The notes: generated from the letters alone by a model not told the origin. A stretch of DNA of 61,054 bases, filler included, from Dugesia japonica (GCA_001938525.1; 5 parts of 5 records of this genome joined end to end with filler, not necessarily neighbours in it), one strand, 5' to 3'. Counted from the first letter of the whole stretch, positions 1 through 61,054 are shown. Numbers and translations are program-made.

Positions 1-239
1 ACTTGATAGTCAAACGACAGGGCAGCCTGGCCGAACAAACTAAGGCTCTCACACAAGAGACACAGTTACTGTTGCAACGCAAAATAGATTTTTTGAAACA
101 ATATATTGCAGATCTCTCCCGTCAGCTAGGAAATCCTACATGGGTCCAATGTGACGATAATGACGACTCGGCGTCGTTCAACATTTTGACGACCGACTCC
201 GCCCAGTGGTTAGACCCGGGTGCATTAGATCTCATATGA
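1..239 (+). CDS. C-terminal part of an element-encoded coiled-coil/bZIP-like protein with acidic tail (paralogue of 58415-58834); truncated by window edge
   Basis: Aligns by eye to 58415-58834: QTKAL..E..LLQRKI(D/E)FLKQYIADLSRQ(L/I)GNP...QWLDPGALDL; AATAAA at 251 after the stop. Confidence 0.75.
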   Translation, partial: LIVKRQGSLAEQTKALTQETQLLLQRKIDFLKQYIADLSRQLGNPTWVQCDDNDDSASFNILTTDSAQWLDPGALDLI

Positions 240-299: not shown

Positions 300-490
300 G
301 ATAATAGGGAAAATAGTGAACCCAAATCCAAAGGCCTATGGGCGCGCACCTCCCATTAAGCGAGAGGTCAACCACAATAAGCTGAATACCTAACCTAGGG
401 GTGTTAGGTTAAATTCTTGAAAGGTTCCCCTGAGGACTGTTTTTCCCCAGCCACATTTTTTCTTCATCCTACTCAGGTGGAACCCCAACA
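300..490 (+). mobile_element. Structured terminus (copy A) of an unclassified repeated element, ending ...GGAACCCCAACA
   Basis: Reverse complement matches 58161-58350 and 11113-11202; similarity stops at the terminal CA in all three copies. Confidence 0.85.
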
Positions 491-1040: not shown

Positions 1041-3100
1041 CTAAACCAGAAAATTTTTCTACTTGGGAGGGGTTATTGGGGCAATGGGAAATTTTACTAA
1101 ATTTAGGAGAAACTTACTAAAATAAGAGTAAGTATACAATTTATCTGGAGAGTAGAATGGAGCAAGGATCAACAAATAAGAGTTATTCAATACAATGAAG
1201 CAAATTGGAAAACGTATCGAGACGAGAACGAACGTCTAAAGTAAAACCATGTGATCAAGAAATTGGAGGTAATCTTGGTAAATTGCGTGTGCCTTTACAC
1301 AAACATCTATATTCTGTTTGCGACAGAAGATTGGAATACGCAGATATGACCAAAAGATACAATTCAGAAAAAGAAACAATCCCAAATCAAAAAGAACAAG
1401 AAGATTTAGAAAATATTAGCTCTCAAGAGGTAAAAGATGATTTTACAAAATGTTCGACTAAAAGAGAGATAACGATTGGATCTGGAATAAGACACGTAAA
1501 TAAGTTGCTGGTTCCGTTTAGATTGAACAAATGAAGGGAACATATACAAAAAAGACGGATCAGTGACTTACACAACCGTACTCATTACTGGATACAGCAA
1601 AGTATCCAAATAAAAAGTGAGATAGTTGATACAAAAAGATTGATAATTAAAGATCAATAGAGGTAGAAACGAGATATTGATGAGATTAAAACAAAAATAA
1701 AAAAGAGTCAGTGAAAGATAAATATATTAGAAGCAACAATCAAGCGTATTAATGCGTCACGGATGCAAGATTAAGAACATATTTATCACGAGAGAACCCA
1801 ACAGTTGATAAAAGATGAGGTAAGAGCAGAAACTGAATTTCGGAAATGCAAAAAGGTTCACGAGGAAAGTCTGATAGCAATCCAGAATTTAGAAAAACAG
1901 GTCGAAGCAGAAAACAAGTGACTCAAAGAAACACCCATTACAGTAGTGTTATCTCACGGCAGAATAATGTCAATTAATCAATTTACATCTGAATAGCAAC
2001 TCCAAGACCATTGGAACCACAGATAAATTATTTAGCACAGAAAGCTCAAAAACAACAAATACAACCAAAACAGAACAAAATCCAGGCTTCGCCTTATTCG
2101 GAATCTGAGGAAGATCTTTTCTGGGGTGAATAAATTCAACCTTTTTTGTACAGATGTCAAAACAATACTAAATATAATATCTATTGATAATTTTCTTTGC
2201 GATTCGATGCCGCTTCTCAGTGTTATTATATTGAAATGTTAGAAACATTTTAAGAAACCCCCAACTGTCCCGTATTAAATTTCAGTAGTTCTAGGTTATA
2301 TTTCTCGTCAACAGAAGGTTCCAGAAACCGATATCCTACAGCCCTATGTTGCATCTTACCTTCTCTCGGCAGTTCTAAGCTGAACCCAATTGACAGTCTA
2401 TTAAATTATGGTAGTTTTTAGCTAGACTCAACCAATGGTCGATTCTCGTCTCTACGACAGAAGGCTCCAGAATCTAAATATTTATTGTAATTATTATGAT
2501 GAAAAGAGAAAATTATAATAAAAGTAAAAATTAAGACTTTGGGCAAAAAAAGAGTTAAAGACAATTGAGGAATTAAATTGTTGAATAGTACCTGAGGCAG
2601 TAATTTAAATGAAGGGGAGGCAGACTAATTAATACTAAGATTCACAATATATAATGTCTTTATAATTTACATTACTCGTTCTGGGANTACTATTAAACAT
2701 AGATTTTAAGGTCACAATAATTTCATTCTGATCAATTAGTTTAAATTCAAATTTAGAACCACGTCGAATATGTGACATAACATCCCATTGAGTGACTGAA
2801 GATTTAATTGATTTTTTGATTAAAGAAATTCTCTAGGTCTTTTCTGGAAGGGGATCCATTAATCTTCGTGAGTTGGTAGTTTCAAATACTAACTTTTGAG
2901 AATGTTTAAATGTTTCTGTACGGAAAATTCTAATTTGCCTCTTTGCTACTTCAATCGATTTGTATCGTTTAATATAATAAGAAAATAATATTCTTTTTTA
3001 ACTTTTATTTTTAAAATCAAATAAGTCATATCCAAATAATATTAATTGATTGAAATAACACCCATTGAAATCGACTCATGCCAACGGTAAATAAGTTGAT

Positions 3101-3600
3101 TTATACCAGTAATAAAGAATTCCCGTGTCCTGGATTCAATAAATTTTCAAGGACATTTTCAATAGTAAAATGATTTTTAAACATTTTGCCTTGCAAGAAG
3201 AGCCCAAAATGCTTATAAAAATAAAAATTGGTAGGTGAGAGGTGTGGCATTTTTGGTGGATGCTGCAAAATTTCGTACCTCAATACTTGCAGCTTTTTTG
3301 TGGCCGAGCATTGTAATGGAGAATAGTAGGACCTATCCTGATGATAGAATGTCGAACGAAAGTTATCCATTTCTTGGGGCTTCTTATCAACTCCCAGGAA
3401 ATATTTATCTTCTGTACCTTTTTCCAAGGAATCATAATGCCTCCAAGATACTACCAATCAGCGTGTTTAATCTTTTAGCAACGTTTTGGAAAGTTTTCGG
3501 TGGTCCAAACACTGTGCTGAGCGTTTGTAGCTGTCATATAAAAACCATTTTTTATCGCAGTTCACGATGCGATTGAGAAATGAATCATTCATGATCAACA
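3101..3600 (-). pseudogene. Degenerate mariner transposase, C-terminal half
   Basis: YEILQHPPKMPHLSPTNFYFYKH...FLQGKMF is a decayed HPPYSPDLAPSD motif; frameshifted. Confidence 0.85.
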
Positions 3601-4933
3601 AATGAACGCCGATTTCTTTGTTTTTAATTTGAGAGCCACAAACACTTACTATATTTATAAACCTCAGATTATCAAGTTTAACAATTTCATAAAGTTTAGC
3701 TGATAAAAGTAATGTATTTTATAGGTACCATTGCTTTAAATAAAAATTTCTCCAAACATAACTATCGGTATTTTATTCTTTTATGAATAACACTTAGAAA
3801 CATGTAGGCCAACGCAGTTGTGCATTATTCTTTTATCTTCAATATTAGAAATTATTTTCAAGTAATTGTCTTTTTTTCATTTTACCCTTGATTTAAAAAG
3901 CTTCTGTTGTATTTCAAGTATTCTTTCTAAAAAGAATGTTACAGTTTAATTCAAGTATGACATTGTACACATCGAAAATGGTAATTTAACCGGGAAAATA
4001 AAAGCTATATGAGAAAATTGTCAATTATAGGTGAACTCAAAACAAAATTGTGAGATGCATTCAATTAAATCATAACAAATTTTTGTCAATTTATTCAAAT
4101 CGATTGAAAAATATACATTTAATAAACAATAATTAATTTCAAAAATAAATGCAATCTTTATTACAAAAAAAAATACGAAAAAACTGACACACATAAAAAT
4201 AATTTATAAATCTACTGTCAACAGAAAGTAATAAATCCAAAAATAAAAATCTTAAATACATAAATATCTAAAAATAATTATCGGAAAATGAACGACTAGT
4301 TGGGAGTATAAATCCTGACCAAAAATTATTTTGATAAAAATAATAATTAATTATCATTAGTTTATAATTTTAATAAAAATTAAAATAATTAAATATATAT
4401 ATATAATCCCAACTAATCAAATAACAAAAGTCAAAGACCGATTTTAATTTTTCAATGATTTAAAATAAAAACAACACCATCATCACCTAATTCAAATTTT
4501 TTTCTCTTTCGTTTATGTTGAATATTGTTAAAAATAGTTTTAAAATCATAATCATAAAGTGATGAGATGTTCCTGAAAATGTTAAACTGAAACAAATTCT
4601 GAAAATAGTTTGCAACACAACAAACCTAAGAATAATAAATCAGCATACATTAAATACACACAAATATACACACACGCAAAAAACACACATAATTCCCATT
4701 TCAAACAAAAATGAGATACAATAAAAATACACAGCTCTATTTTTCACGTCTGTATTATCCTACTAACGCAAATCACATAAATAAAGCGCACAAAATAGAC
4801 AAATCTTAGTAATTAATAATAATAATAAATTACACGCAAACAGCTTCAAGCAAACCAATTTAACACATGTTTAAAGACAAAAGTAGAATTTTATAATTAT
4901 TTCTTGAAATTTNNNNNNNNNNGTGCAAGACAT

Positions 4934-7174
4934 TCAGCGCCTCATGTCGGTCATTCGTCGCCTAGGTTTAGCTAAATTGCTGTTTGTAAGTAGTTTAGCT
5001 TTAGGAATGGCTGAAAGAAAAAAACAAATGATTAAAAACAATTTAAATGAAAACAAATTAAAATTTGGTCACCATTTAAACTTTCTTCAGTGTTTTTCTT
5101 CAATCTTTCTGATATTTCTTTCAAACGATAATCTTGAGCGATCTGATTTCTTATATAGGCTTCTCGCCATGTTTCACCGTCACGTCTGTTTGCTGATTTG
5201 TGATTTTTTTTGAAAAGTTTTTCCCAGAAAAATTCGGTTTTTCTCTGGATTTTCTGAGAAAAACGGAAAAAATTAATTTCGATTAAAATTTTCCTGTTTT
5301 TATTAAAAATTTTAGTTAATTAATTTCATTCGGCTGATTTTATGCAGATTTTCCTAATTTATCAAAGAAAAAACCTTCATTTTATTACATAATAAAAATG
5401 TTAAATNNNNNNNNNNNNNNNNNNNNNNNNNNNNNNNNNNNNNNNNNNNTATTTTATAATCAAATAATTACCTTGCTTTCCCCATCAAAAGCTTTCAATT
5501 TCTCAAAATTAAATTGAGCGATTTCAGTTTCTAAAACTCCGTTTATCGTTCTGAGATTTTCTTCAACTGTATCATGTTTTACTATATTACTTTTTGGAGT
5601 CCATATTTTTCGTTCTGATGAGTATTTTGATGTACAATCGATATCTTCTTTAATTTCATAGTTGATATTATTTTCTTTCTTTTGTAGAATTAAATCTGTT
5701 CGATTATAAACTGATTGTTCGTCCATATCAGAATTCGATAATGAAGAATTTAATGCAGGTAAATCCGATAGTTCTGTTGGAGCGAAATGCGCTGGACTTT
5801 TCTTCAATTGTATATGTGGTTTTTTACTTTCAATATTATGAAAGTTCTCTGATTTTCTCTTTTTTCCTTGATTTTCAGCAGGTTTCGGCAAAGCACTGTC
5901 TTTAAGAAACGTTTCAAATGGCGTTACATTCTGCTTTATATCGGGTTTTCTTGATTTATTTTTATGCTGTTGGTCTGAATTTGAAAAGATTTTTACATTA
6001 GATGGTGGTTTTAATTCCGATGATTTGTCAACTGGGAATTTTTTATTGTCGATACTTATTTGATCACTTTTGATTGGCCTTTTGCTATCATCTTGAAAAA
6101 TATGTTTATCAGATTTTAACAAAAGATCACCTTTTATTTCATTTCTCACTTTATCAACCCTCCTTTTGTTATTTTTATTACTATTTTCATTAATTGGCAT
6201 TAGAAAATCTATTGTATCCATTTTTGAAGATTTCTTTCTACTTTCTTCGAGGCGTTGAAAGTGTGCCTCGTCACTATCTAAATCAGAATCATCACTTTCT
6301 TGTTTCATTTGCTTGTGAGTATATTTAGTAGAACTATCTGTTTTTTTCTGCACAACACTATGATTATATTCCTCGGAATTTTCATCATCGTACCGAACTT
6401 TTGAATTAATCTTATCTTCATGTTTTCTATCAGATTTTTTAGATGATTTTAGATTTTCGGCAAATTCATCACATTCATCAGAATCGATATCAACACTAGA
6501 AAAATCTGAATTGTCATTATTATTTCTATTTAATTTGATATGATTCATTTTACTGCTTTCTGAAGTTTTATTATGCAGCTGAAATTTTTTATTTATATTT
6601 TCATCAATGTCAGAATTATGATTTTCAAATTCTTTCCTATTATGATTTATTGGGTTTTCATTTTCACTTAGAGAGTCACTAGATGTTTGAATATCTGAAG
6701 CATGATCATTCTTTAATTTTTTATAATCACTATTTTTAGATTTATTTCTGTAAGCATATTCAGATTCACTTTCAGAAGAACTACGAGTTTGTTGAACCGG
6801 TTTATTTTCTGTATATTTTACTGATTTACTTGGTTTTACAACATCATGTTTATTTTTTTTCTCATTATCCTGAATCATTTCTGTCCACTCCTGGACTATT
6901 TTATTAGCTAATAAACCAGGTTTCCCTGGTAGTTTTGAACATTTTTTAACTGCTCTACCTATTCTTGACTCCTTCAAAACGTCAAGTGTCACACCAAGTT
7001 CTCGTATAGCTTTAAGTGTTCTATATTTCTGAATAATAATAATATTTTATAAAGGATTTTAAATTTGTAAAATGTAATTATTAAACTAATGTTAACTATT
7101 ACTTTATCCACTGATATTTCTTCTGAATTCAACTTATCAGAGAACTTTTGAAGAATCGTAATTAAATTACTCAT
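4934..7174 (-). CDS. ELOA: Elongin A-like transcription elongation factor (spliced)
   Basis: Exon 7174-7103 and exon 7028-5472 (74-nt GT-AG intron) give a TFIIS-N domain (VTLDVLKESRIGRAVKK...KIVQEW) and a long charged linker. Exon ~5254-5070 encodes FWEKLFKKNH...GETWREAYIR...RLKEISERLK (Elongin A domain). Last exon ~5011-4934. An exon may be hidden in the N-run at 5407-5449. Confidence 0.8.
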
Positions 7175-10004
7175 AACTTTAAAAATAAATATGCGAGTAT
7201 TTTAAAACAAATTTTTACACATAAACATTGTACGTATTTAATTTAAAATAGGATGTAATATTATTATTTTAAATGAAATTTTATAAAATGCAAAAATATT
7301 ACACTGTTATTTTTAAAAATTTTTGACCTGAAAAAGTTATTCAAATAGATATTTTAAAAAAATTTTATTATAATTAAAAATATTGAATACATTAATTTTA
7401 TGCTACTTGTGACTTTTATATTGCACATTTTAATTAAATATTTTTGTGTTAGCACGAAAAAATATAACAATAAAATTAATTTGTTGTATAGGGTGAATTT
7501 TAAAATAAAGTTATTAATTAATTACGGAAATAAAGTAATTTTTCCCGATGTATTACATCAGGCACATCAAACACAGTCCTAGAACGTCACATATCTTCTA
7601 ATAAATTACTAACTAGTTATAACTATTTACGAATGTGCTGTAATGAAATTATATGACGAAAATCAAATTTAAAATGAAAATTCATATTTAACTCTTGTAA
7701 TATCAAAAAAGGTTAAAGCATCAAGGAATGATTATATTTACAAACAACAGAAATCAGCAGTTCATTTACCGAAAATTAGAAGACATGAAAATCAACAAAA
7801 AAGCAAAATGTTTGAAGTGCCATAGTTATACTAATAATGTGTCTTGGCACTGTGGAAGCGTCTTTAACACACGTGTATAACAATAATTGTGTAATATTAT
7901 TCAAAAATCCTTATTTAAAAAATATGTCCACTTATGTTTACATAAATCTATACATGAACATGTGCCACGCGTTATTACATAATAACAAAATATTACAACA
8001 CTTTCTTACTCAAAAAATTTAATAATTATTTAAATTCAAAATCTAATAAAAAAAAGTTTACAAAATATTAGATTTTAAATTAAGTAAAAGTTTTTATTTC
8101 GAAATTAATTTTACATTAAAATAACAATTTACAGCAAAATATTAAATTTATTTACGAAAAATGTTAAGTGAAAATAAAAATTTTATTTACACAATTTAAA
8201 TAGTACAAATGTTTTTCACATGCATCGAAAATATATTCATTGTCAAAATTTTAAATATTTCCCCACTCATTAATAATTATTTCATCTTAAAACATTTATT
8301 ATTAAAGATTGTATTGATATTTTAATTAAATCTATTATTAAATTTTTGAAAAATAATTTTTAAAAATTTTTTGAAAAAAAAGCTTTTTCTTTAATGCATA
8401 CAGCTAAGGAATTTTAATTCAAGAAAATATTTAATTTTAAATAGAAAATATGTAACCAATTTCGAAATTTAATAAATGATTTTTCANAGACATTTTCAAA
8501 ATATACAAAAAAGTATAAATTTTTTTAAAAATATGATATTACATTTAAATTTAAAAATATTTTTAAAATATTAATTTTCACTCTAACTAGAATTTCACCT
8601 GGTAAAAATATATTACTTAAGTTCAAAATTAACGTTGTAAGTTTTATTTATTACATGACTTATCACTCAATCTAGAGATCTGTTTGAAATTCTACTTTGG
8701 CTGATTAATGTTTTTTAATTAAATGATAAATGAAAATTATCTTTTTAGCATTCATTAGAAAAATAGTGAGTATTTAATATTAGTAATGTAAAACTTAAAT
8801 GTCAATTTACTTATAATCATACTTTACAAGAAATCAGAAAGGGACTATGTAAGGTAGTTTAGTCTACTCAAATAATAAAGACTTCAAAAGAAATTAGGCA
8901 AATATTTCTTTAAATTCAACCATTTTAACTGTAAAAATATTTAATGTAAATAAGAGTCTGCCTTACCAATATTGCAAGTTTAACAATAAAAAATAACTTT
9001 ACTTTGAAATATACTCCAACTAAATAAGGCAAACTCCAAAGTTACGTGGGATACAAAATTTTATAACTTTTCTAATATAATTTAACTACTAAAGTTTCAT
9101 CGCGTCTATTTATGTGTTTCCATTGAAATTGCCTTTAAAATGCTATCGGTTGCTTCAATTATTTGGACATGATGTCCAAATATAGTGAATAAATATATTG
9201 AATAATAAAGTTTAATAAAATTAGCTTGATAAAACAAGCCTAATTTATTTTAATTGTTAAATTTAATTAAACAAGTTGTTTTATAATTTTTTAATAAATT
9301 AATTTTTTGTACTATATTTAGCTTTCCAAAACTTCTATTGAATTTATTTTAGACAATTTTTTTTTTAAGACTTTATTTTATTATAAAACTATAATTCGTG
9401 TCATTTTTCATTAAATTTTATATTTATTTTATATTTTATTAAAATATAGTAGTAGTGGAGCGAGTGATCAACCAATTTTTAAACAAAGGAATTTATAAGT
9501 GGATCGCGCAAGATGGAGGATAAGAAACTTTCTATCCAACTAGTAATAATAAACAAAAATTCCTGAAATCTTATCAATAAAATGAAATAAAGAAATTCAT
9601 TATCAAAAGAAAAAAATTTTAGTCAGCTGAACATGAGTACGATAATATTGATTATAACAATGTTGTTAGAACTAGCAAGAGCAACAAACGCAATAGTAGC
9701 GTATGACTGTAATGTTCCAAAGGGGAGACTAAAACATCCCAGAAGGTCTACCGTAGTGAACATTATTATTCCTAATTATTTACTATGGTTACCATGATCA
9801 GATCCCCCACTAGTTTTCTAACTAAATCTTCTGCCATTGATTTAGGAACGAATATCATTTCCATGAGCAACCACAATTATGATTAACCACATCAATACGA
9901 AGACCATTTGCATACCTGAACACTCCCATTATGGAATGAAGTCATCGTAACTAAGTTTAACAGACGTTGATAATGATTGTAACCACTGACAATTGTTTTT
10001 TTAG

Positions 10005-10185
10005 ATACATGCCCAGCTTTCCTCGTTTAATCTTCCGAATCATTCGACACGAGCGTGAGCTAGTTCGGCTCCGTAAATTGGTGTTACATATATTATATCC
10101 AGACAAAGCGGAATATCCCGATGAGACCAATCTGGCATGTCTCGTCAAGATGTTTCCCCTGAAACCGCCATCAAGTCATGATTAA
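10005..10185 (+). CDS. Small element-encoded protein, PDETxLxC-MFPL family (paralogue of 60024-60196)
   Basis: RIIRHERELVRLRKLVLHILYPDKAEYPDETNLACLVKMFPL aligns without gaps to the minus-strand translation at 60.0-60.2 kb; preceded by an acceptor-like TTTTTTTAG. Confidence 0.65.
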
Positions 10186-11112
10186 AGAAAATTTATGTCT
10201 TACTGTCTTAATAATAAGTGGGTAGATGTGAGTGAATCAACCGTTTGATCTACTGGTTATCGTGGATTTATTGATTAAAGAATTTTGATTTTTCATCGGA
10301 TCAAATTCAAAAATTTTTTTTGAAGTGCTTAAATCAAGGANNNNNNNNNNNNNNNNNNNNNNNNNNNNNNNNNNNNNNNNNNNNNNNNNNNNNNNNNNNN
10401 NNTTTTTTGAAGGTGTTGGGCTTCTAGGCTTTTGATGTTATTTTCTTTTCTTCTCTACTGATCGATTTTTCATCTTTTTAATTGAAATTTACGTCTGGGG
10501 GATGATACCTAGTAGCCGCAAGACGATAATTTGTATGATGCCTTCTCCTGCATCACGATCCCCCATTCCCGAATTCGGCGGGACTATGCGTTATCCCGTC
10601 TTATGAAACAAAATCTCTTTGAATTATCGTGGCTTCAGTGGCAAAAACTTTACATTGATGAGTTAAAGAGAAATGACAAGATTTAATTATAATCGAAAAA
10701 ATAACTACCAAAGTTTCAAGCAATAATAATACGATACTGATAATATTAAAAACTATAAAATGAATTCTGTTTATGTAATATATACAGGAACTAATCGATT
10801 ATTAATAGTAATTACATAGAAGCTAATAAAGTGCAATTTCAACTAAGATAAAAATATTAACAAAAAAAAAATTTCAAAGCTAAGAATGTTGACGAAAATA
10901 ATACTGATATAATCTAGTTTAAAATTCGTCGGTTCCAAGTTTAAATGAAGGTTATATTCAGAATGAACATACTAATAATTATCCTAATGATAATAATATA
11001 ACAACAGTAAAATTAACAACACCAATAATAATAATCAAGATATTAATAATGATAATAATACTAATGATAATAATAATAATCCTAATAATAATTATAATAA
11101 TAATAATATTAT

Positions 11113-11202
11113 TGTTGGGGTCCCACCTGAGTTGGAAAAGTGGCCGGGGAAAAAACAGCCCTTAGGGGAACCCTTTCAAGAATTTACCCTACCGTCCCTG
11201 TG
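11113..11202 (-). mobile_element. Terminus (copy B) of the same element, next to an (AAT)n-rich tract and cut by the scaffold end
   Basis: TGTTGGGGTCCCACCTGAGT...GGGGAAAAAACAGCCCTTAGGGGAACCCTTTCAAGAATTTACCCTACCGTCCCT matches copies A and C. Confidence 0.85.
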
Positions 11203-11302
11203 NNNNNNNNNNNNNNNNNNNNNNNNNNNNNNNNNNNNNNNNNNNNTTAATTAATTAANNNNNNNNNNNNNNNNNNNNNNNNNNNNNNNNNNNNNNNNNN
11301 NN
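11203..11302. other. Artificial scaffold linker N-TTAATTAATTAA-N
   Basis: Six-frame stop 12-mer centred in a 100-bp N block; recurs four times. Confidence 0.95.
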
Positions 11303-27049: not shown

Positions 27050-27340
27050 AAACCTTTTTTGAAAAAACATATAGCTAGGTAATTTTCTAAAAATTCAAGC
27101 AATTTGCTATTAAAATCATAGTAAGCATGCAATTTTTCTATAAAAAACATATTAGTGGAGCAATTTTTAATGTTAAATCTCAGTAGCGATGCAAGTTTTA
27201 ATAAAAAATCTCATTAGTGATGCAATTTTTAATCAAAAATCTTATTAGCGATGCGAGTTTTAATAAAAAATCTCATTAGCAAGGCAATGTTTCTATAAAA
27301 AACATATTAGCGTTGCCAATTTTCTAAAAAAACAAATAAG
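27050..27340. repeat. ~30-bp tandem array 2 (AAAAA(C/T)(A/C)T(A/C)TTAGCGATGCAATTTT)
   Basis: About 9 degenerate units. Confidence 0.75.
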
Positions 27341-27469
27341 CTCAGAACATCTATTTACAAAATGATAAAAACAGACAATTTTTCATAAAAATCATAAATT
27401 CATGGAACCTTTCCATATATAACTAATAAGTCTATATAAAAACTTATAAGGAAATATTTTTATGATTGT

Positions 27470-28530
27470 ATAGGGTGAATGAGTGTATTATTTACATAGT
27501 AACCGTGTAATATATGGTTTTTGAGTATAATATTTGCATTGTTACCTTGTATTATTTACATAGTAACCCTGTATTATAGTTTTTATGAGTATAAGTTTTA
27601 TGACTGTATAAGGTTTATAGGTGTGTGGAACATTTCCATATATAACTTAAATTTACTGTATAAATACCTTATAAGTGAATATTTTTATGAATGTTTAGTG
27701 TTTATGAGTATACTAATTGCATAGTTAGCTTGTATTATTTACATAGCAACCGTGTATTATTTACATAGTTTAATGAGTTTAAAGGTTTTATGAGAATATT
27801 TATTTGAATAGTTACCTTGTATTATTTACATAGTAACCGTGTATTAAAGGGTTTATGAGTGTATTATTTGCATAGTAAATGTGCAATATAAGGCTTATGA
27901 GGGTATTATTTGCATAGTTACCTTGCTTTATTTACCTTATAAGCTATATTAGAGTGACAATTTGTCCTAAATATCACTAAATATTACTCTAAAAATTACC
28001 TTAAACGCATATATAAAACTTATAAGTAAATTTGTTATGACTATATAGGGTTTATGAGTGTATTATTTACATAGTTAACTTACATTATCTACAAAATAAA
28101 AGTGTAATATAAGGTTTTCAGAGTATTATTTACCTAATTACTGAGTAATATAGTGTTTTCGAGTCTGTGAACTTTTCATAAATATATAACTTAAAATTAA
28201 TGTATAAAGTAATTTATATAGTAACCGTGTAATATAGGGTTTATTATTTACATAGTACCTTATATTATTTACATAACAACTGTATAATATAAGACTTATA
28301 AGGGAATTATTTACATATTAAACGTGTAATAAGGCTTATTCAGTTATTTGTACATAGTAACCATGTATTATAGGATTTATGAGTGTAATATTTGTATATT
28401 TACATTGTATTATTTACTTATCAACTATGTAATAAAGGTTTTATGGTTGTGTTATTTTTATAACAACCATGTATTATTCCCATATCAACTGTGCAATATA
28501 AGATCTATGGGGGTATTTTTTACATAGAAT
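27470..28530. repeat. Tandem array 3 (GTATTATTTACATAGTAACCGTGTAATAT...)
   Basis: Many ~20/40-bp units over about 1 kb. Confidence 0.85.
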
Positions 28531-28662: not shown

Positions 28663-29110
28663 ATGATTACCAATATTTATTACAGAGGTGAAGTGCCACA
28701 AGAAGTAATAAAGAAAATTAACTTTCCTACCATGTCAATTTAAAGTCAAAAGTGATAAGTTTACAATTATTTACTTCACATCAGGTAAATATAGAATAAT
28801 GGGTTGTAAGAAACCATTATTTGATTTGGTGATTTGAACCCCCTATTATATAAAAATTTTACAATTACAGTCACTAACAATTTTCGTAAATATTGGAATT
28901 TCAATAAATCTGTATAAATTAGCAAGAATAGTCAACTGTTGGTTTGAACCAGAGTTATTTCCTGCTCTAAGACTTGTAAAATATAATCATTTATGTGTAA
29001 ATGTGTTCTCAACAGGAAAACTAGTAATACTAGTGCTTAAAAATTTGTATTTTGAGGGATATGTGAATAACATTACTTCAGATTTATTCAATTTGATTGA
29101 TAAAATTTAG
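28663..29110 (+). pseudogene. Divergent intronless TATA-binding-protein-like gene (one frameshift, one in-frame stop)
   Basis: Repeat 1: FTIIYFTSGKYRIMGCK (cf. TALIFSSGKMVCTGAK). Repeat 2: INLYKLA...WFEPELFPALRL...VNVFSTGKLVIL (cf. YEPELFPGL...LIFVSGKVVL). Confidence 0.85.
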
Positions 29111-30688: not shown

Positions 30689-32483
30689 AACAAACAGGAA
30701 ATTCAAGATGAAAAGATGGAAGATGCATATCCTGTCTAGGAAGACGATGGTGTTTGCTTTGAATATTAGGATAAAAAATATGAACATTATTATATGAAAC
30801 GTTTAATTTATTATTATTTTATTTAATTTTTATTTTAGAAGTAGCTCAACAGATATTGAATAACAGGTTTCCAGAATATTATTTCTATACAAATCTGTAT
30901 ACTCCATAGTCCCGCTGAACTCGAGGAAAATAAGTAAATAAACTAACGATGTGTAGCAAACATTTGCGAATTCTATGTTACCCTTTATACAAGTGTAGTG
31001 TAAAATGAGAAAGCTTAAGAACAATGTCAAAGTTAAAACTATTAAATAAATTATCTAACATCAAAAAGCCTGGAAAAAGCGTGTAATCCCAACACTAACT
31101 CTGATTGAGGTCAAACTATGAATTCCAATGAAATTGGAAACAAAATATGATACTAATACAAAATGAATTGACCCTTCCGTCAGTCATATTTGTAAAAAAA
31201 TTAATTATGTTTAATCAATTAACTAATACAGATTTATCACTCTTCAACTCATCTAACAAGTCGGTTTTTGTGTGTGTATTTTAAGACTATTCTGATATAT
31301 TTCATTCTAATCTATCAATATTTATTTCTACTTCTTATTCATCTCAAGAAATCAATAAAAAAATTGCATGGCTTAATATTTGCAAAAATCTAAATAAATG
31401 CTTTTGTGAAAATTACCTTTCAAATTTTTTCATATCATTAATTAACTGTGTTCGAATTAAATAACCCGAAGTATAATCTATAATATTGACATCTGAATCA
31501 CCCTAATTACCTTATGGAATGCAACTAAATCAATTTTTATTATCGTTTCATTTGTCATCAATTAAAATTAAATTTGACATAGTTTAATAAATTATAAGAT
31601 TTTCGATGAATTCTAATCTAATTTCAATTTCATGTTACTAATTTAAACCCGGAAAAAATATAAAAATGTCAATTAAAAATATGAAATAAGAATTCCGAAC
31701 CTTGGGAAGTTTTCAATGAATATAAAACTTGCTTTTATGTATTCTGTATGTGATTATTCAGAGTCTCTGTTTATCTTACTAACTGAGACCCAATAAAACC
31801 AGTACGCGTATGACACTAAGGACTCTGGAACAATTGGTCATTGAGTAGTCGATTAAATAGTGGAAGGATAGTGACGTACAAACAATGGAGATAAATAAAT
31901 TATTTTCACAACCAAGATTTATGATACTAATTGCTATCACTTTGCAATGGTTTCAAATTTTATATTTATTTTCTGTTCTGTTTATTTTAATGTTTTGAAA
32001 TATTCTGTCAAATGTTAGTAATTAGTACAATAAATAAAATTTACTTTGATTTGATCTGCTACGAAGAGGAATTTTAATTGGAAAATCGGTAAGCTGTAGT
32101 TGATTCAAAAGTTTTTATTTCTGTTTAAATCTATGAAAGCTATTCACAATTTGTCTGAAAACTCTTAAACTCAGAAGGGTTTTATATCGATTCCTTCCAC
32201 TTAAAGTCGTTATAAATATTATTAATTTTATACAAACCAATATTTAATTTCATAAAATATATCAAATAATTTAATTTTATAACTTTGTATTAAATAATTC
32301 TATCGAAAAATTTGTTTTAGTGTTTAAATGCTTAAAATATATATTTAGGAATTTAAGCCTTTTTTTAAATAATGGAATTATAAAATTATATTAAAATTAT
32401 AATAATAATAACAAAAAATATTATAAATTATTTACAAAAAAATGACGAATGTGACCATTGATAAATGGAACAAAATATAAAAA

Positions 32484-33799
32484 ATGATATTACAACGCAA
32501 ATTTACAATAAATTGTGATGTTAATGATAATTACAAATGTGGAATTTGCAAAAATGTCTTAATAAATGCACATCAAACTATTTGTGAATGCAATTTTTGT
32601 TATGAATGTATCAATCAATATATGGCTAATGGTGCTCTCAATTGTCCTAATAACGATGAAAAATGCAAATTGAAAAGTTTATCCAATATTACACCAAATC
32701 ATAAAATGAATAAATTAATTTTGAATCTAATGGTGCGATGTTCTAACAACATGTGCTCATATGAATGTCAATTAATAGAAATGGAAAATCATTTTAATTC
32801 ATGTTTAAACAAGTCTGTTAAATGTCCGTTTAATGATTTTAGTTGTGAACATGATGTGATCAATGATAAATTAAATTATCACAACACAATATTGATTGAT
32901 CTGGTTGAAAATTTGAGAAATGAAATGCGAGAATTGAAAGAGAAAATAGATGGGAATCGATTAGAAATTGAAATGTTGAAAGAGAATGATCGTATAAAAA
33001 ATGAAATAATGGAATCATTGAACGAAAAGTTCAAATTAATAAAAGTAAATAAAAATTTTATTGATTTAAAATTTTTATTTTGATTTAGCATGAAAATAAA
33101 GCTTTGGCACAACAAATAGAGATTGGTGAGGGGAATTTATGTACAAATTAGATGAGATCTATATTGAGATGAAGAGTAAACGCAAGAAAGAGGAATTATT
33201 GAAAGAATTTGACGAGAAATTCAAGATGGAAATGAATGCGAGATATTGTGATATGAAAGAAGTGATTAATGATGAAAATTCGATAATCAATGAGATTATT
33301 GATTCAGGAATGGAATGAGAAAATAGAGAAAATGAGAGAAGAGAATGAAAAATTAGATAATGAAAGATCAAATGAAATCGAAAAAATTAATAAATATTTG
33401 AATATGAGAGATGATGGAAGATTGGATTGGCAAATTGGTAAAATCAGTGAGATAAAATGGATGATGAGTGAATATTTCTATGACAAACAGAATCCATATG
33501 GAATGTATTTGGAAATGGAAAATATAAACAATGAATTGAATATTTGGTTGTGCATTTATTCTGGTGCATTTGATGATGATCTCAAATGGCCCTGTCAAGC
33601 TGATGTTGCAATTAATATTTCTGCAATGAATGATAATTGGGATATATCCAAAACAATAACAAAATCATGCTCAATAGCAAACCCAGAAAATATTTTGTCC
33701 AAATGTGAAGAACCAATCATATTTTCTCAATTTGATTGCACAGAATCAAATCTTAACAATATAAATTGCTCATTGGTTTGCATAGTAAAATTTAAATGA
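32484..33799 (+). pseudogene. TRAF-like gene (RING, TRAF zinc finger, coiled coil, MATH); apparently frameshifted
   Basis: CGICKNVLINAHQTICECNFCYEC...CP; C-terminal SEYFY...YGMYLEM...IYSGAFDDDLKWP (MATH); intron 33045-33088; in-frame stops at 33150-33290 while another frame is open there. Confidence 0.8.
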
Positions 33800-33959: not shown

Positions 33960-34059
33960 NNNNNNNNNNNNNNNNNNNNNNNNNNNNNNNNNNNNNNNNN
34001 NNNTTAATTAATTAANNNNNNNNNNNNNNNNNNNNNNNNNNNNNNNNNNNNNNNNNNNN
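33960..34059. other. Artificial scaffold linker
   Basis: TTAATTAATTAA at 34004-34015. Confidence 0.95.
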
Positions 34060-54064: not shown

Positions 54065-55586
54065 CTAGATTTATCAAACCCGTCAAATGGACGGGTTACA
54101 TAAATTTAGTGTTGATAAATCTAAAAACCTGAATATTTTATAGTATAAATTAATATTGAATATTAGTAATTGTACTTTGAGGGCGGATTACTCAATTTCA
54201 ATAAAATTTCAACATGTCAAAACAGGCAAAAAAGGGAATTTTTGAGTGAAAAAGGGTCAAAAACAAACCTTTTAGACTTTTCATTAATTTGACAGGGAAA
54301 AATCAAAATAATCAAATTAAAATAAAATTCAAATTTTCGCATCAAAATGAAAATTCTGATTGAGAAGTAAATTTGAAAAATCTCAAAAATTACCCACCAC
54401 TTCACAGAAAATAGATGAATGGAATTTTTTAAAACTTTCATAAAATTAAAATAATAAAAAATATGATGCAACTTGATACCAATTTAAAAAATAAAATAAG
54501 AGAAATTATAAATAAAAATATAGTTGTTTATTCAGAATATTATTATTTAACTAAAAAACATAATGATTTCTTTACTAGTTGTTTTTCAGAATATTATCAA
54601 TATATTTACTCATTATTAGCTTCTATAAAAAAAATAATAGGATTAATTTATAAAGAAAAATTTGTACATTTAGGTTTTGTTATTAGGTAGATAGTGGCGC
54701 ATTGCCAGCATTGACTTTTCATTGAAGACCCCCTCGGAGAAAAAAAAGTTAAATAAATAAAAATAAGAAAAAATAAAATAAAATTAATATCATATTTAAA
54801 ATTTGGTATAAAAAATTCATAGATATTTAAAAANAAGCTTAGAAATAAAAAACAAAAAAAACTGGCATAAAAATTTAAGGGAAATTAAAATACTGGCATA
54901 AATTTTAAAAGAAAAATCTAAACTGGCATAAATTTAAAAGAAATTAAAAAACAGGCATAAAATATGAAAGAAAATTAAAAAACTGGCATAAAAACATAAA
55001 AGAAATTAAAAAACGGGCATAAAATTTAAAAGAAATTAAGCTTTTATAATATTTATTTAAAAACATATTAACTAGTTAATTTGATTAAAATATTATATGA
55101 TTATTAAAAATAAATGTTCAATGCATGGAACATTTTAACCAATCAAAATAAAACATAAATTCTAAATCTCATTTATTTTCTCATTCACAATTTTTATTTT
55201 GATGCAAAAATTTGAAATTTAATTTAATTGCATTATTTTGTTTTTTCCTACTCAAATTAATGAAAAGTCGATTTTTCGTTCGTTTTGGAGATTAAAAAAC
55301 TTTAAAAATTTCATTAAACCTAAAAAAAGTTTGGAAATTGGTGACATTAAAAGCCCGGTTTTAGACCTTTTTTCACTCAAAAAGCCCCTTTTTTGCCTGT
55401 TTTGACATGTTGAACTTTTATTGAAATCGAGGGATCCGCCCTCAAAGTACAATTAATAATATTAAGCATATATAAAAGGTGTAAACATCTGAATTTTTTT
55501 TTCAAATAACTTCAAATTACGAGTATTCGTATGTTATGTTCATCGTTTAAACAATACCTGTCAAATTGACGGGTTCACTATACTAG
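54065..55586. mobile_element. Two oppositely oriented Helitron-like 3' ends forming a large inverted repeat around a ~30-bp minisatellite
   Basis: Hairpin ACC(C/T)GTCAAAT(T/G)GACGGGT ~9 nt from CTAG|T at both ends; 54165-54270 is the reverse complement of 55355-55460; AAACTGGCATAAA repeats at 54855-55040. Confidence 0.7.
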
Positions 55587-55765
55587 TAGTTTTTGTTGTA
55601 AAAGACAGTTTGCCTTTATTATCTTTCTATAACTGGTGTATGAATATAGAAAAGATTGTTGGATAGGAAGATATATGTTGTATACAAGTGAAATTATATG
55701 TATATATGAGTCCCANNNNNNNNNNNNNNNNNNNNNNNNNNNNNNNNNNNNNNNNNNNNNNNNNN

Positions 55766-56576
55766 AAAGAAAAATCTAAACTGGCATAAATTTAAAAGAA
55801 ATTTAAAAACAGGCATAAAATTTAAAAGAAAATTAAAAACTGGCATAAAAAAGTTANNNNNNNNNNNNNNNNNNNNNNNNNNNNNNNNNNNATTAAGCTT
55901 TTTATAATATTTATTTAAAAACATATTAACTAGTTAATTTGATTAAAATATTATATGATTACTAAAATTAAATGTTCCATGCATGGAACATTTTAACCAA
56001 TCAAAATCAAACATAAATTCTAAATTTCATTTATTTTCTCATTCAAAATTTTTATTTTGATGCAAAAATTTGAAATTTAATTTAATTGCATTATTTTGTT
56101 TTTTCCTACTCAAATTAATGAAAATTCGATTTTTCGTTGGTTTTGGAGGCTAAAAAACTTTAAAAATTACATTAAACCTCAAAAAATTTGAAAAATTGGT
56201 GATATTAAAAGCCTGGTTTTGGACCTTTTTTCACTCAAAAAGCCCCTTTTTGTCCAGTTTTGACATGTTGAACTTTTATTGAAATCGAGGGATCCGCCCT
56301 CAAAGTACAATTAATAATTTTAAGCATATACAAAAGGTTTAAACATCTGAATTTTCTTTTCAAATAACTTCAAATTACGAGTATTCGTATGTTATGTTCA
56401 TCATTTTAACAATACCTGTCAAATTGACGGGTTCACTATACTAGTAGGTTTTGTTGTAAAAGACAAAGTTTGCCTTTATTATCTTTCGATAACTGGTGTA
56501 TGAATATAGACAAGATTGTTGGATAGGAAGATATATGTTGTATACAAGTGAAATTATATGTATATATGAGTCCCAC
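55766..56576 (+). repeat. Tandem near-duplicate of ~54910-55714, including the Helitron-like end (CTAG 56441-56444) and its flank
   Basis: Colinear with scattered substitutions; separated by an N gap. Confidence 0.85.
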
Positions 56577-57830: not shown

Positions 57831-58414
57831 AATAAATATAAACCTTAGATTTGTGAATGTTGTTTGGCCTCTTCGATTTCAATTGAAAAACAACAATTTC
57901 AATATTCTTTTAATATCCAATTAATATAGTTTATTATCCTTTTGATATCCTTGTAATATTCTTATAATTCTTGGAATCAAATCGTCTTAACTGTAAATGA
58001 TTCAAATATATATAATGATAGAACATCCCCACAGTCTCCTGAATTTCAGGGAAATCTCCGAAAGGAATTTTATTTAAAATATCAATGTGATATTTGATTA
58101 AATATATTTGAATAATTTAATTTGATATATTAATTTTAATAATATATTAATCATTAATTATGTTGGGATCTCACCTGAGTTGAGTTACAAAAATGGTGGC
58201 TGGGGAAAAAACAGCCCTCAGGGGAACCTTTTCAAGAATTTAACCTACCGTCCCTTTGGTAGGTCTTCAGTTTATGGCGGTTGATCTTACTCTTAATGGA
58301 AGGTGCTCACCGATAAACCTTTAATTTCGGGTTCTATATTTTTCCCTATCATTATTATCCAAGAAAATAAATTACAACTCTGATTAAAAATATTTTTTTT
58401 AAGAGAAAACATAT

Positions 58415-58834
58415 TTAAAGTAAATCCAGTGCTCCCGGATCGAGCCATTGGTCTGGGTTCGTGGTTACAAAATTAAACGCAGCGATATCATCATCGTCAT
58501 CCCACTGCGTTATATTAGGATTGCCAATTTGCCTTGATAGGTCCGCAATGTATTGTTTTAAAAATTCAATTTTTCGCTGCAGCAATTGTTTATTTTCGAT
58601 TTCTAACGCCTTTGTCTGAATGGCGAGGTCGTTTTGTTTCTTTATGACTAAATCTAGTTTTTTTATCAACTGGTTTCGTTGGTCAAGGTGCTTCAATATA
58701 GCTTTGTCGGCTTTACGTTTCAGATGCCTTTCAAGAAGGAGGCGACGCAGAATGCGATGGCATCTCCTAAGGTTGTTGGGGAAAATAATTCGTGGCACTG
58801 AATGAAAAATATAGTTAAACTTGACAAGAATCAA
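58415..58834 (-). CDS. bZIP-like basic/coiled-coil protein with acidic-aromatic tail
   Basis: RRCHRILRRLLLERHLKRK, then heptads (KALEIENKQLLQRKIEFLKQ), then WDDDDD...WLDPGALDLL; paralogue at 1-239; likely splice acceptor TTTTTCATTCAG at ~58799, so the listed start is doubtful. Confidence 0.7.
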   Translation of the reverse strand: MILVKFNYIFHSVPRIIFPNNLRRCHRILRRLLLERHLKRKADKAILKHLDQRNQLIKKLDLVIKKQNDLAIQTKALEIENKQLLQRKIEFLKQYIADLSRQIGNPNITQWDDDDDIAAFNFVTTNPDQWLDPGALDLL

Positions 58835-58912
58835 ATTCGGAATTAAAGTAATGAATTAGAAAAGGTATAAAATAATTTATTTAATAAACAATTAAATAGG
58901 AGATAGAGTAAC

Positions 58913-59272
58913 TCAGGGGCGATTGGTCTGAGTCCCTTTGTCAATCAAGAGGGGTGGTAAAGGCATCGTGGCTCGTAACTTCACTATATTCTCGACGAGT
59001 TGGTTTTCACGCTCTTGGTAGGTTTTAGTAATTGTGGTAAAAGCTTCAACTTGTGCTTTCCATACCCTCTCTTGATTTTGGGTGTCGTCCATCTCTGCTT
59101 TAAACATCAGGAATTTCCGCTTATAGCGCTTCACTTTGGCTTCTGCCGCAGTGGTCTCTGCCTCCCACCGCCTTTTGGCTAATCTTTAAAGATCGTAAGT
59201 CATCTCGTTGTCATCATCATCTTCTCGTAATTTCTTATTTGGTGCCTGGGATCTATTTAAGGACGAATGCAC
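58913..59272 (-). pseudogene. Element-encoded coiled-coil protein with one in-frame TAA upstream of the listed ORF
   Basis: Frame extends to an acceptor-like TTTATTTCAG: ...LREDDDDNEMTYDL*RLAKRRWEAETTAAEAKVKRYKRKF...KGTQT. Confidence 0.5.
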
Positions 59273-59534
59273 TGAAATAAAAGTACGTTTAAGGTATTAA
59301 ATTTTGCCTGATATTGGCTAAATACTAGTAACATGGAGTAGATATGGTTACCCATATCATTAAATGAAAATTGGAAAGAATTCAATAGTCATAAATATTA
59401 TTTTAATTTTACAAGAAAATTTCATTTAAAAAAATCAATATTGCATCATTTTCCCAGTACATCGATTCACAAGAAAAGTTAAACATAGACGAAAATGAAA
59501 ACACCTATTTATTTCTAAAACAAACAACCAAAAA

Positions 59535-59891
59535 CTAGGATTGATTAATAGCAGTGTCGGTGTTAGGGGCAGTGTTTTCGATATCCGTTAACCCATTCGG
59601 ATCCCGGACTCCCCAGAGGAGATTAGCGATGAACGCTTGTATCGTCGGAGCTGGGGGAGGAGTGGTAGATTGATAGGAGAAGGAAGTCACAAGAGTACGA
59701 TCCGGCCTCGTCCATGCCTGATATCGTTGCCGCTCTGCAAAATCATTAATGCGGGCGACGGCTGCTTCGACCGGTGGTAAATTCAACCGGTCTACTAAGA
59801 TCCCGGCATCCCGATTGTGCGGGTTGTGATAACGGCGTAACATTAGTCGACGAGTTCTCCTATCGATTACGCGTATCCAAATGGAATCCAT
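59535..59891 (-). CDS. Element-encoded 118-aa hypothetical protein
   Basis: ATG start, GC-elevated relative to flanks, AATAAA downstream of the stop. Confidence 0.6.
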   Translation of the reverse strand: MDSIWIRVIDRRTRRLMLRRYHNPHNRDAGILVDRLNLPPVEAAVARINDFAERQRYQAWTRPDRTLVTSFSYQSTTPPPAPTIQAFIANLLWGVRDPNGLTDIENTAPNTDTAINQS

Positions 59892-60023
59892 ACTTATGTA
59901 TAAAACATAACTAGTAAAATTTTAACCATGTCATATTACGATATAATAAATAAATATAAGTAAGAAATACACAATTAATCTATAATTAATTCGCACAGAC
60001 ACTCGTGATATTAAATAAAGGAG

Positions 60024-60196
60024 TCATTCTTCATCTAAGTCGACTTTCCCGTCTAATGGGAACATTTCGGCGAAACAACACAAGTCCGTTTCGTCCGGTT
60101 GTTCTATTTTTCCACGAGTTAACAGGCAGGCTATTAATTGTTTCAAACGGGCTGCTTGTCTTTGTCGTTTTATCTTTCGTAGCACTTGATACAGTT
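60024..60196 (-). CDS. PDETxLxC-MFPL family protein; 5' part lost in N gap, absent from the ORF track
   Basis: LYQVLRKIKRQRQAARLKQLIACLLTRGKIEQPDETDLCCFAEMFPLDGKVDLDEE*, homologous to 10005-10185. Confidence 0.7.
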
Positions 60197-61054
60197 NNNN
60201 NNNNNNNNNNNNNNNNNNNNNNNNNNNNNNNNNNNNNNNNNNNNNNNNNNNNNNNNNNNNNNNNNNNNNNNNNNGTATTAAGAGCGAGGAGCTACCCAGG
60301 CATTCTGGATCTAACCCAATAAAGTTTCATTTTTAAATGGAGAAGTTCCATCATATGCAAAATCCAGTTAGACACGTTGTCATCTATGTTTCTGATGATA
60401 CTTGCTATCAGAAGGTGAATAGTAACTATTATGGTAATAACAGAAAATGTAGAGGAAAAGTAACTGCTCCAAAATTTTCTTTTCCTTTCGCAAGATGTTT
60501 AAAAACAAAAACAAACCCGAGGTTGGGAGGGATACTAGGAGGTTAGTGGTTACCCAGGTTATTGATTCTTTTAAACATCGAGACATCATACTTTATTGCA
60601 AACTATAGAATTATTTCTTACGATTTTAGTAATGAGTGTGGTAATGAAAAATAATCCTGATATTCCGGAATGGCAGTACTAATAAATACAAGGATTTAAA
60701 AAAAAAGTTATAATAGTAATAAATAGGATGCTAAAATAAGCGAAAACAAGATTATTAATTAATTAAAATCAGAATATGATTTGAAATTCTCCGGTGTCAT
60801 GGTTGCTTGGCGACCACACACCTGATTAATGTCTAACTTATGATATGTTAGATTTTATCGCAGTTAGTGTGTATCAGGTGAGATGGCTGTCTAATTTTCA
60901 GCATCGGCATAATTATTGCTTTAATAGAGCTTAATGGATATCGTTAAACTTGGCAGTCCACCACTTGTCATGACTCATGACTAATATACTGTTTAAAGTT
61001 TAATAAGTGAAAAATACTAACCTTATAATAATTTATTGTATTCTGGTTGGCTGC

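Follow-up and report, generated by a model that had tools for sequence, protein, structure and literature searches.

We analysed a 61,054-nucleotide stretch of Dugesia japonica DNA (GCA_001938525.1; hereafter, the window), in which a row of four small open reading frames (ORFs) is found beside the conserved end of a putative mobile element. The window is composed of five records joined via 100-base spacers (44N-TTAATTAATTAA-44N) at 11203-11302, 24275-24374, 33960-34059 and 50711-50810, and it is AT-rich, animal-type DNA with a GC content of about 16-39% per kb. The end, of about 190 bp, was found three times by self-BLAST and alignment. Copy A opens record 1, copy B closes the same record, and copy C is located near the end of record 5; one end is visible per copy, each copy being truncated at a boundary of its record or of the window. 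ORF1 to ORF4 are the frames of copy C. Published sources are cited here, and below, from excerpts of the papers.

A terminus shared by three copies

The terminus of copy C (58161-58352, minus strand) is non-coding and, read on the gene strand, closes with CCCAACA at 58161. In copy A (300-490, plus strand), the alignment placed CCCAACA at 490, and copy B (11113-11202, minus strand) retains 90 bp, cut by the record end, with 82/98 columns the same as in C and 77/100 the same as in A. When the terminus was used in a window-wide profile search, four matches were obtained, copies A, B and C at E<1e-21 and a fourth at E 3-6, and this bore out the three occurrences listed in an initial annotation of this DNA. 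The termini of A and C were identical at 151 of 194 columns (78%), compared with a mean of 46% and a maximum of 51% in shuffled sequences. Continued homology past the CA was also looked for, and the 100-bp flanks of A and C showed 57% identity, a value at shuffle level (mean 53%, maximum 61%), indicating that the homology ends at CCCAACA; the sharp stop against unrelated flanks described before was thus confirmed. The spacer preceding the block was inside the shuffle range as well (56%). Whereas the terminus is 78% conserved between A and C, 4-fold sites agree at only 4/16, and therefore the conservation of this non-coding end greatly exceeds that of neutral sites.

The CCCAACA found in all three copies matches the YNYAACA side of the integrase-recognition consensus of long terminal repeats (LTRs), TGTTRNR...YNYAACA (PMC3601003), and its complement matches TGTTRNR. 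In addition, the TGTTG of the three copies matches the TGTNR terminus of Ginger elements. The TG...CA end of integrase type proposed earlier is in agreement with these motifs, and the copy C terminus is likely to be an integrase attachment end. Neither a TGG primer site nor a purine run was found at any of the ends (0/3), as the initial annotation had also stated; this is what outer ends and solo LTRs should show, and it supports the notion that the three ends are outer ends. The first bases after the CA were CAATTA in copy A (491-496), TAATTA in copy C (58155-58160) and ATAATA in copy B (11107-11112). Copies A and C share 5/6 of these bases, which could reflect a preference for AT-rich targets.

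The search for a second end detected no CCAACA on the plus strand of 58200-61054. Two candidate 4-bp target-site duplications were discarded, as both were within AT-rich spacers inside the array, and A and B were rejected as both terminal inverted repeats (TIRs) of a single element, since they face inward. The terminus pattern gave 0 matches in viral and metagenome contigs. A GC-richer patch with short inverted repeats was observed at 60790-60900, where about 11 bases near 60875 resemble an inverted terminus, without extension and probably by chance; another GC-rich patch, at 10403-10700, begins near TGTTGGG at 10414 and showed only compositional matches to copy C.

Small genes of the array and their expression signals

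An acceptor-like TTTCAG|TG precedes ORF4 (58415-58797, minus strand), which has 126 codons and no in-frame Met. The ORF4 paralogue in copy A (3-239, plus strand) is truncated by the record start and retains 78 codons, with 52 of the 78 residues identical (tblastn E 3e-30). The mismatches by codon position were 28/13/53, the proportion of synonymous differences (pS) was about 1.0 and that of nonsynonymous differences (pN) 0.23, giving a pN/pS of 0.22 (bootstrap 0.14-0.31). ORF1 (60024-60196, minus strand) consists of the 3' 56 codons of a frame whose 5' end falls within an N gap at 60197-60274, and it contains the motif ExxDETDxxCxxxMxPL. The ORF1 paralogue (10005-10185, plus strand) has an ATG at 10009, preceded by an acceptor-like TTTTTTAG, and encodes 58 amino acids; over 10009-10185, 19/44 residues were identical (E 1e-8), both sequences match the core ExxDET[DN]xxCxxxMxPL, and pS and pN were 0.92 and 0.40 (pN/pS 0.43; bootstrap 0.28-0.66). 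Hence, the two diverged paralogues claimed before are present, the ORF1 paralogue being outside copy B, as a separate, fourth fragment. Saturated synonymous sites along with a conserved protein indicate that ORF1 and ORF4 are real genes of diverged lineages. Because of this saturation, 0.22 and 0.43 are upper bounds, and A and C are distinct lineages rather than two LTRs of one insertion. The initial annotation had proposed to compare copies for a nonsynonymous-to-synonymous rate ratio (dN/dS), and neither value was near 1. The short upstream non-coding match that it had reported (9908-9940 against 60325-60361) did not hold: its score of 16 was reached by 300/300 shuffles of both upstream regions, as expected by chance.

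Upstream of the ORF1 paralogue, a 54-amino-acid frame with a hydrophobic N-terminus and the residues AYDC follows an acceptor-like TTTTAG (9633-9797, plus strand), and it is possibly another micro-gene. This frame matched the start of Pfam PF24664 (Monjiviricetes_fusion) with E 0.028 and 12.8 bits, versus a 27-bit cut-off; an env gene was rejected at this position, as the match is below the cut-off and was lost on longer read-through.

ORF2 (59535-59891, minus strand) is an intact frame of 118 amino acids with its own ATG, and ORF3 (58913-59271, minus strand) extends for 118 codons after TTTCAG|TG, with an in-frame stop TAA at 59188. No paralogue of either was found in the window, and both are putatively coding, as judged from length and composition (49% GC at third codon positions, GC3). 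The four co-oriented small ORFs of the initial annotation are therefore present as frames, with reservations for three of them: copy C is damaged by the internal stop of ORF3 and by the gap that cuts ORF1, and ORF4 has no Met in its 126 codons. The array frames are separated by AT-rich spacers, and their GC3 was 38-50%, compared with 18-23% in two host-type genes and a Gypsy reverse transcriptase (RT) and 36% in a hAT-like fragment. Homology among ORF1-4 themselves was rejected, since the best cross-score, ORF2/ORF4, was equalled by 10/300 shuffles, and no hydrophobic segment was detected in the four frames (maximum KD17 0.9).

Database searches returned no homologue for any frame searched. 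Pfam and NCBIfam gave only sub-threshold matches for the array frames, the PDB sequence search gave 0 matches, and none of the 590, 239, 143 and 5 pattern matches of the related-locus searches was confirmed. A set of 5.8 billion sequences was searched with ORF4 and ORF2, and 0/38 and 0/13 candidates, respectively, were confirmed. The sole match of the ORF4 profile among 1.84 billion representatives, P0001, was rejected, as it is a 2041-amino-acid surface protein with DUF7507 repeats whose score is the sum of seven weak repeat matches with 22-37% identity. The ESM Atlas contained nothing usable for ORF4, and the best value for ORF2 was 0.83. Foldseek yielded nothing at E<=0.001 for ORF4 (four viral matches listed) or for ORF1 (two PDB matches listed), the ORF1 model being weak (predicted local distance difference test, pLDDT, 70; predicted template modelling score, pTM, 0.36). 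In agreement with the initial annotation, no transposase, RT or Rep domain was found in the four frames or in the six-frame translation of 60275-61054, nor were PolB, integrase or capsid genes found in the 2.9 kb of copy C.

ORF4 has a basic N-terminal part, heptads within a long predicted helix and a tail that is both acidic and aromatic, with net charges by segment of +9, +5 and -8, and the acidic tail is retained in copy A (-7). The structure prediction was a single helix of 84 residues (positions 7-90, pLDDT >85). From this layout, we would guess at a zipper-type transactivator; the database searches provided no family, fold or homologue in support of that reading.

ORF3 and ORF4 both start at TTTCAG|TG, in the same phase and at a step from AT-rich to GC-richer sequence. 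A TG follows 13 of 406 background acceptor-like sites, versus both of the openings that lack a Met. The 115-bp spacer preceding ORF4 contains no ATG, and therefore ORF4 needs an upstream exon. The two openings suggest spliced expression. In the upstream stretch (60275-61054), which is probably still inside the element, there are candidate splice donors at 60621, 60591 and 60553, and no second end was found. AATAAA signals are located downstream of ORF2 (59513), ORF3 (58881) and the ORF4 of copy A. A working model is that an upstream promoter would produce one leader, spliced to alternative acceptors, and that every small gene would yield its own mRNA, ending at a poly(A) site specific to it; for ORF3 and ORF4, the leader would also supply the beginning of the first codon (split A|UG).

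Nature of the element

LTRs are ordinarily non-coding. With a probability of roughly 60%, we read the ends and the gene row as the outer part of a multi-kb, gene-bearing LTR of a giant Ty3/Gypsy-type (Burro-like) retrotransposon. This class assignment is indirect, as no catalytic gene in the window is linked to the ends; of the family hallmarks, the terminal motif was recovered. The giant Gypsy (Burro) elements of planarians have internal regions of up to 25 kb and totals of >30 kb (PMC6431247). Among the flatworm errantiviruses tabulated in PMC13524379, 8/9, including 6/6 from S. mediterranea, have no listed LTR or primer site, and the pipeline extended only 3 kb; LTRs that are long or far away would fit this, although it does not show them. 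The standard exception to non-coding LTRs is the single gene sag of mouse mammary tumour virus (MMTV), which persists mostly as solo LTRs (490/527 contigs; PMC4667437), and persistence of this kind would give outer ends only. In the proposed gene-bearing LTR, an integrase of retroviral type, supplied by another part of the element, would join the CA end to host DNA, the small proteins would act as accessory regulators, with ORF4 as a candidate zipper-type transactivator, and LTR-LTR recombination would leave gene-bearing solo copies, which would explain why all three ends are outer ones. The copies are probably left mostly as solo LTRs. A fuller scheme, in which the LTR of a complex invertebrate retroelement serves as a multi-gene accessory unit with one leader, at least four acceptors (two completing an AUG), poly(A) sites per gene and one zipper-type transactivator with an acidic tail, is put forward as a tentative possibility that we consider rather doubtful. 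Under that scheme, solo LTRs would spread self-contained micro-protein cassettes through the host genome.

Several observations count against a gene-bearing LTR. None of the copies was linked to a second end, a target-site duplication, a primer site, a polypurine tract or gag/pol, and TATA[AT]A[AT] was absent from the three regions scanned, which included the upstream stretch and the terminus. Acceptor-like sites are frequent (3.7 per kb), the ORF2 acceptor (AAG, 10/17 pyrimidines) falls short of the criterion that we applied to such sites, and a local ATGG|GT mini-exon at 59351 could start ORF3, or both genes, with no need to split a codon. Poly(A) signals placed in an LTR would need read-through or an orientation opposite to that of the genomic RNA. 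Moreover, TG...CA ends are common to Ginger DNA transposons, whose TIRs of 40-270 bp fit the ~190-bp block. It is conceivable, although unlikely, that we are dealing with a DNA element moved by a Gypsy-like integrase, either Ginger-type or an integrated virus-like one, where the block is a TIR and the genes form a terminal accessory arm. TGTTG matches the Ginger TGTNR, the block is within the Ginger TIR range, introns are possible in Ginger genes (PMC2836005), and the 0/3 count of primer sites and purine tracts looks as if all ends were outer. However, the flanks CAATTA, ATAATA and TAATTA fit neither the CCGG/CCGT targets of Ginger1 nor the RTATAY of Ginger2, Ginger1 elements have 2.6-7 kb and a transposase, none being detected in the 2.9 kb of copy C, and the cited passages on Ginger elements describe no micro-gene array (PMC2836005). 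A virus-like element, in turn, would have to be reconciled with the lack of relatives among viral contigs. The initial annotation had left the choice between an LTR and a virus-like arm undecided; indirect evidence, namely the planarian giant Gypsy literature together with a by-eye likeness to GLT2 of Schmidtea mediterranea presented below, led us to favour the long gene-bearing LTR over the virus-like DNA arm.

The block itself could be a short 3' LTR (~175-190 bp), with the four genes lying internally as accessory ORFs, after pol/env and before the LTR, and to this we give a slightly lower probability still. The block starts at a purine-rich AGGGAAAA, a possible polypurine tract, after which copy A has a TG, but copy C lacks this TG, and the TG shows no complementarity to CCCAACA; furthermore, on the gene strand of copy C the block has no TATA and no AATAAA. 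Rotifer elements (PMC5408684) and complex retroviruses offer familiar examples of additional ORFs on the downstream side of pol, and the 54-amino-acid frame before the ORF1 paralogue has its weak match to the PF24664 viral fusion glycoprotein (E 0.028), yet this reached 12.8 of the 27 bits and was gone on longer read-through. Finally, a segmental duplication containing host micro-genes, or else domesticated remnants, with no mobile end at all, would also show splice-like sites and poly(A) signals of host type, and purifying selection is equally expected of host genes. We regard this as very improbable, since homology stops exactly at an integrase-type CA in 3/3 copies with unrelated flanks, the codon composition is unlike that of host-type genes, ORF3 is broken, and two of the three records break within the repeat, as collapsed repeats do. 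Polinton/Maverick termini are AG...CT, which the TG/CA ends found here do not match.

The gene-bearing LTR reading was also compared with known systems. Burro/GYPSM1 elements are alike in that they are LTR elements of giant size from AT-rich flatworm genomes, carry accessory coding content and have LTRs that, by subtraction, reach the kb scale; what the cited section describes, however, is a polyprotein with additional domains, along with a single accessory ORF upstream, and no LTR genes (PMC6431247). The excerpt of PMC11410931 mentions Burro in passing, and that of PMC10954484 adds no structural information. MMTV sag is similar as a protein gene in an LTR, with several promoters and transcripts, mostly solo LTRs and a dN/dS <1, but it is one gene of a vertebrate betaretrovirus, whereas at least four unrelated micro-genes are found here (PMC4667437). 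The sORF1 and sORF2 of the Drosophila MDG1 group are accessory ORFs of 70-110 amino acids under selection in a Gypsy element, with alternative poly(A) after sORF1; in contrast to the array, they precede gag on unspliced RNA, and sORF2 encodes a membrane protein, while ORF1-4 have no hydrophobic segment (PMC11952523). These sORFs and the extra ORFs of rotifers (PMC5408684) are functional analogues placed outside the LTR. Splicing assembles the start codon of env in errantiviruses of the Springer subclade, where the split is AU|G in one gene, compared with the candidate A|UG at two genes here (10.1101/2023.08.03.551782).

The closest lead came from S. mediterranea. On the reverse strand of the GLT2 probe (PMC8532177, Table S1), a by-eye reading shows TTTAG|TG after an AT-rich spacer, opening a helical frame without Met for about 30 codons, and the GLT probe from the same source has a small frame after an AT-rich spacer. 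Against ORF3, the GLT2 probe aligned by eye AEAMVRK with AEAKVKR and KEEIDTLRNQ with KAEMDDTQNQ, possibly a chance likeness between coiled coils (PMC8532177). GLT2 RNA increases on smedwi-2 knock-down, and the transposons of that study were located by Repbase consensus sequences (PMC8532177). Given this likeness, the family may already be catalogued; the element was called unclassified in the initial annotation, which may overstate its novelty. Judged from search listings and the papers cited here, the literature searches turned up no account of LTRs that carry gene arrays in planarians or other invertebrates.

If the gene-bearing LTR is real, accessory genes in the style of complex retroviruses and spliced expression would extend to flatworm retroelements, new micro-protein families would be added, and the great length of some planarian LTRs, along with their escape from pipelines looking only 3 kb from ORFs, could be explained. 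Should GLT2 be related, knock-down data with tissue-specific switch-on of such elements would already permit a test of the splicing model.

Terminus folding and other features of the window

A sub-terminal inverted pair was predicted at 58166-58228 (minus strand; arms at about 58217-58228 and 58166-58179), where RNAalifold placed a stem with 10/12 pairs retained in all three copies. Complementarity was 12/12 in copy A, with 0/60 shuffles as good, and 10/12 in each of B and C, equalled by 24/60 and 13/60 shuffles, respectively. In this region, 31/36 paired positions were conserved, versus 56/78 unpaired ones. A 6-bp hairpin or palindromic site may be present at 58244-58263 (minus strand), for which one two-sided change between A and C is weak evidence. 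A strongly folded terminus was rejected, as whole-end folding energies (z -1.3 to +1.9) were not better than those of shuffles, and for this reason terminus structure is only weakly inferred.

In the rest of the window, Rfam gave two weak miRNA matches, both outside the element, and no tRNA. A 528-codon open frame at 5460-7046 (minus strand) carries a TFIIS/Med26-type N-terminal domain (Pfam E 5e-6) and presumably is Elongin A-like; 0/7991 candidates proved to be relatives at E<=1e-5 in the 5.8-billion set. At 17159-18300 (plus strand), a Ulp1 protease-like frame precedes an RT fragment, an arrangement that we take to be a NeSL-type non-LTR layout. No Pfam match was found for 43446-44900 (plus strand), which by its motifs we assume to be a decayed hAT (SPIN-like), or for 3100-3720 (minus strand) and 20728-21093 (plus strand), which we take as mariner-like transposase fragments. 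The fragmented frame at 47881-49400 (plus strand), also with no Pfam match, presumably resembles the N-terminal part of a Polinton-type PolB by motifs. A lone TBP-like domain at 28838-29110 (plus strand; Pfam E 1e-7) adjoins a complex tandem-repeat block at 27100-28530. At 54908-56575, an adjacent 810-bp duplication with 91% identity, next to a 30-bp tandem repeat, could be an artefact of assembly. A broken Gypsy-type RT with RNase H was observed at 49545-50579 (minus strand), on another record than copies A-C. A TRAF-like RING/zf-TRAF/MATH gene is found in two frames at 32481-33799 (plus strand), and a two-RING frame with gaps at 52249-53905 (plus strand); MATH/TRAF domains are also among the cargo of Burro elements (PMC6431247).

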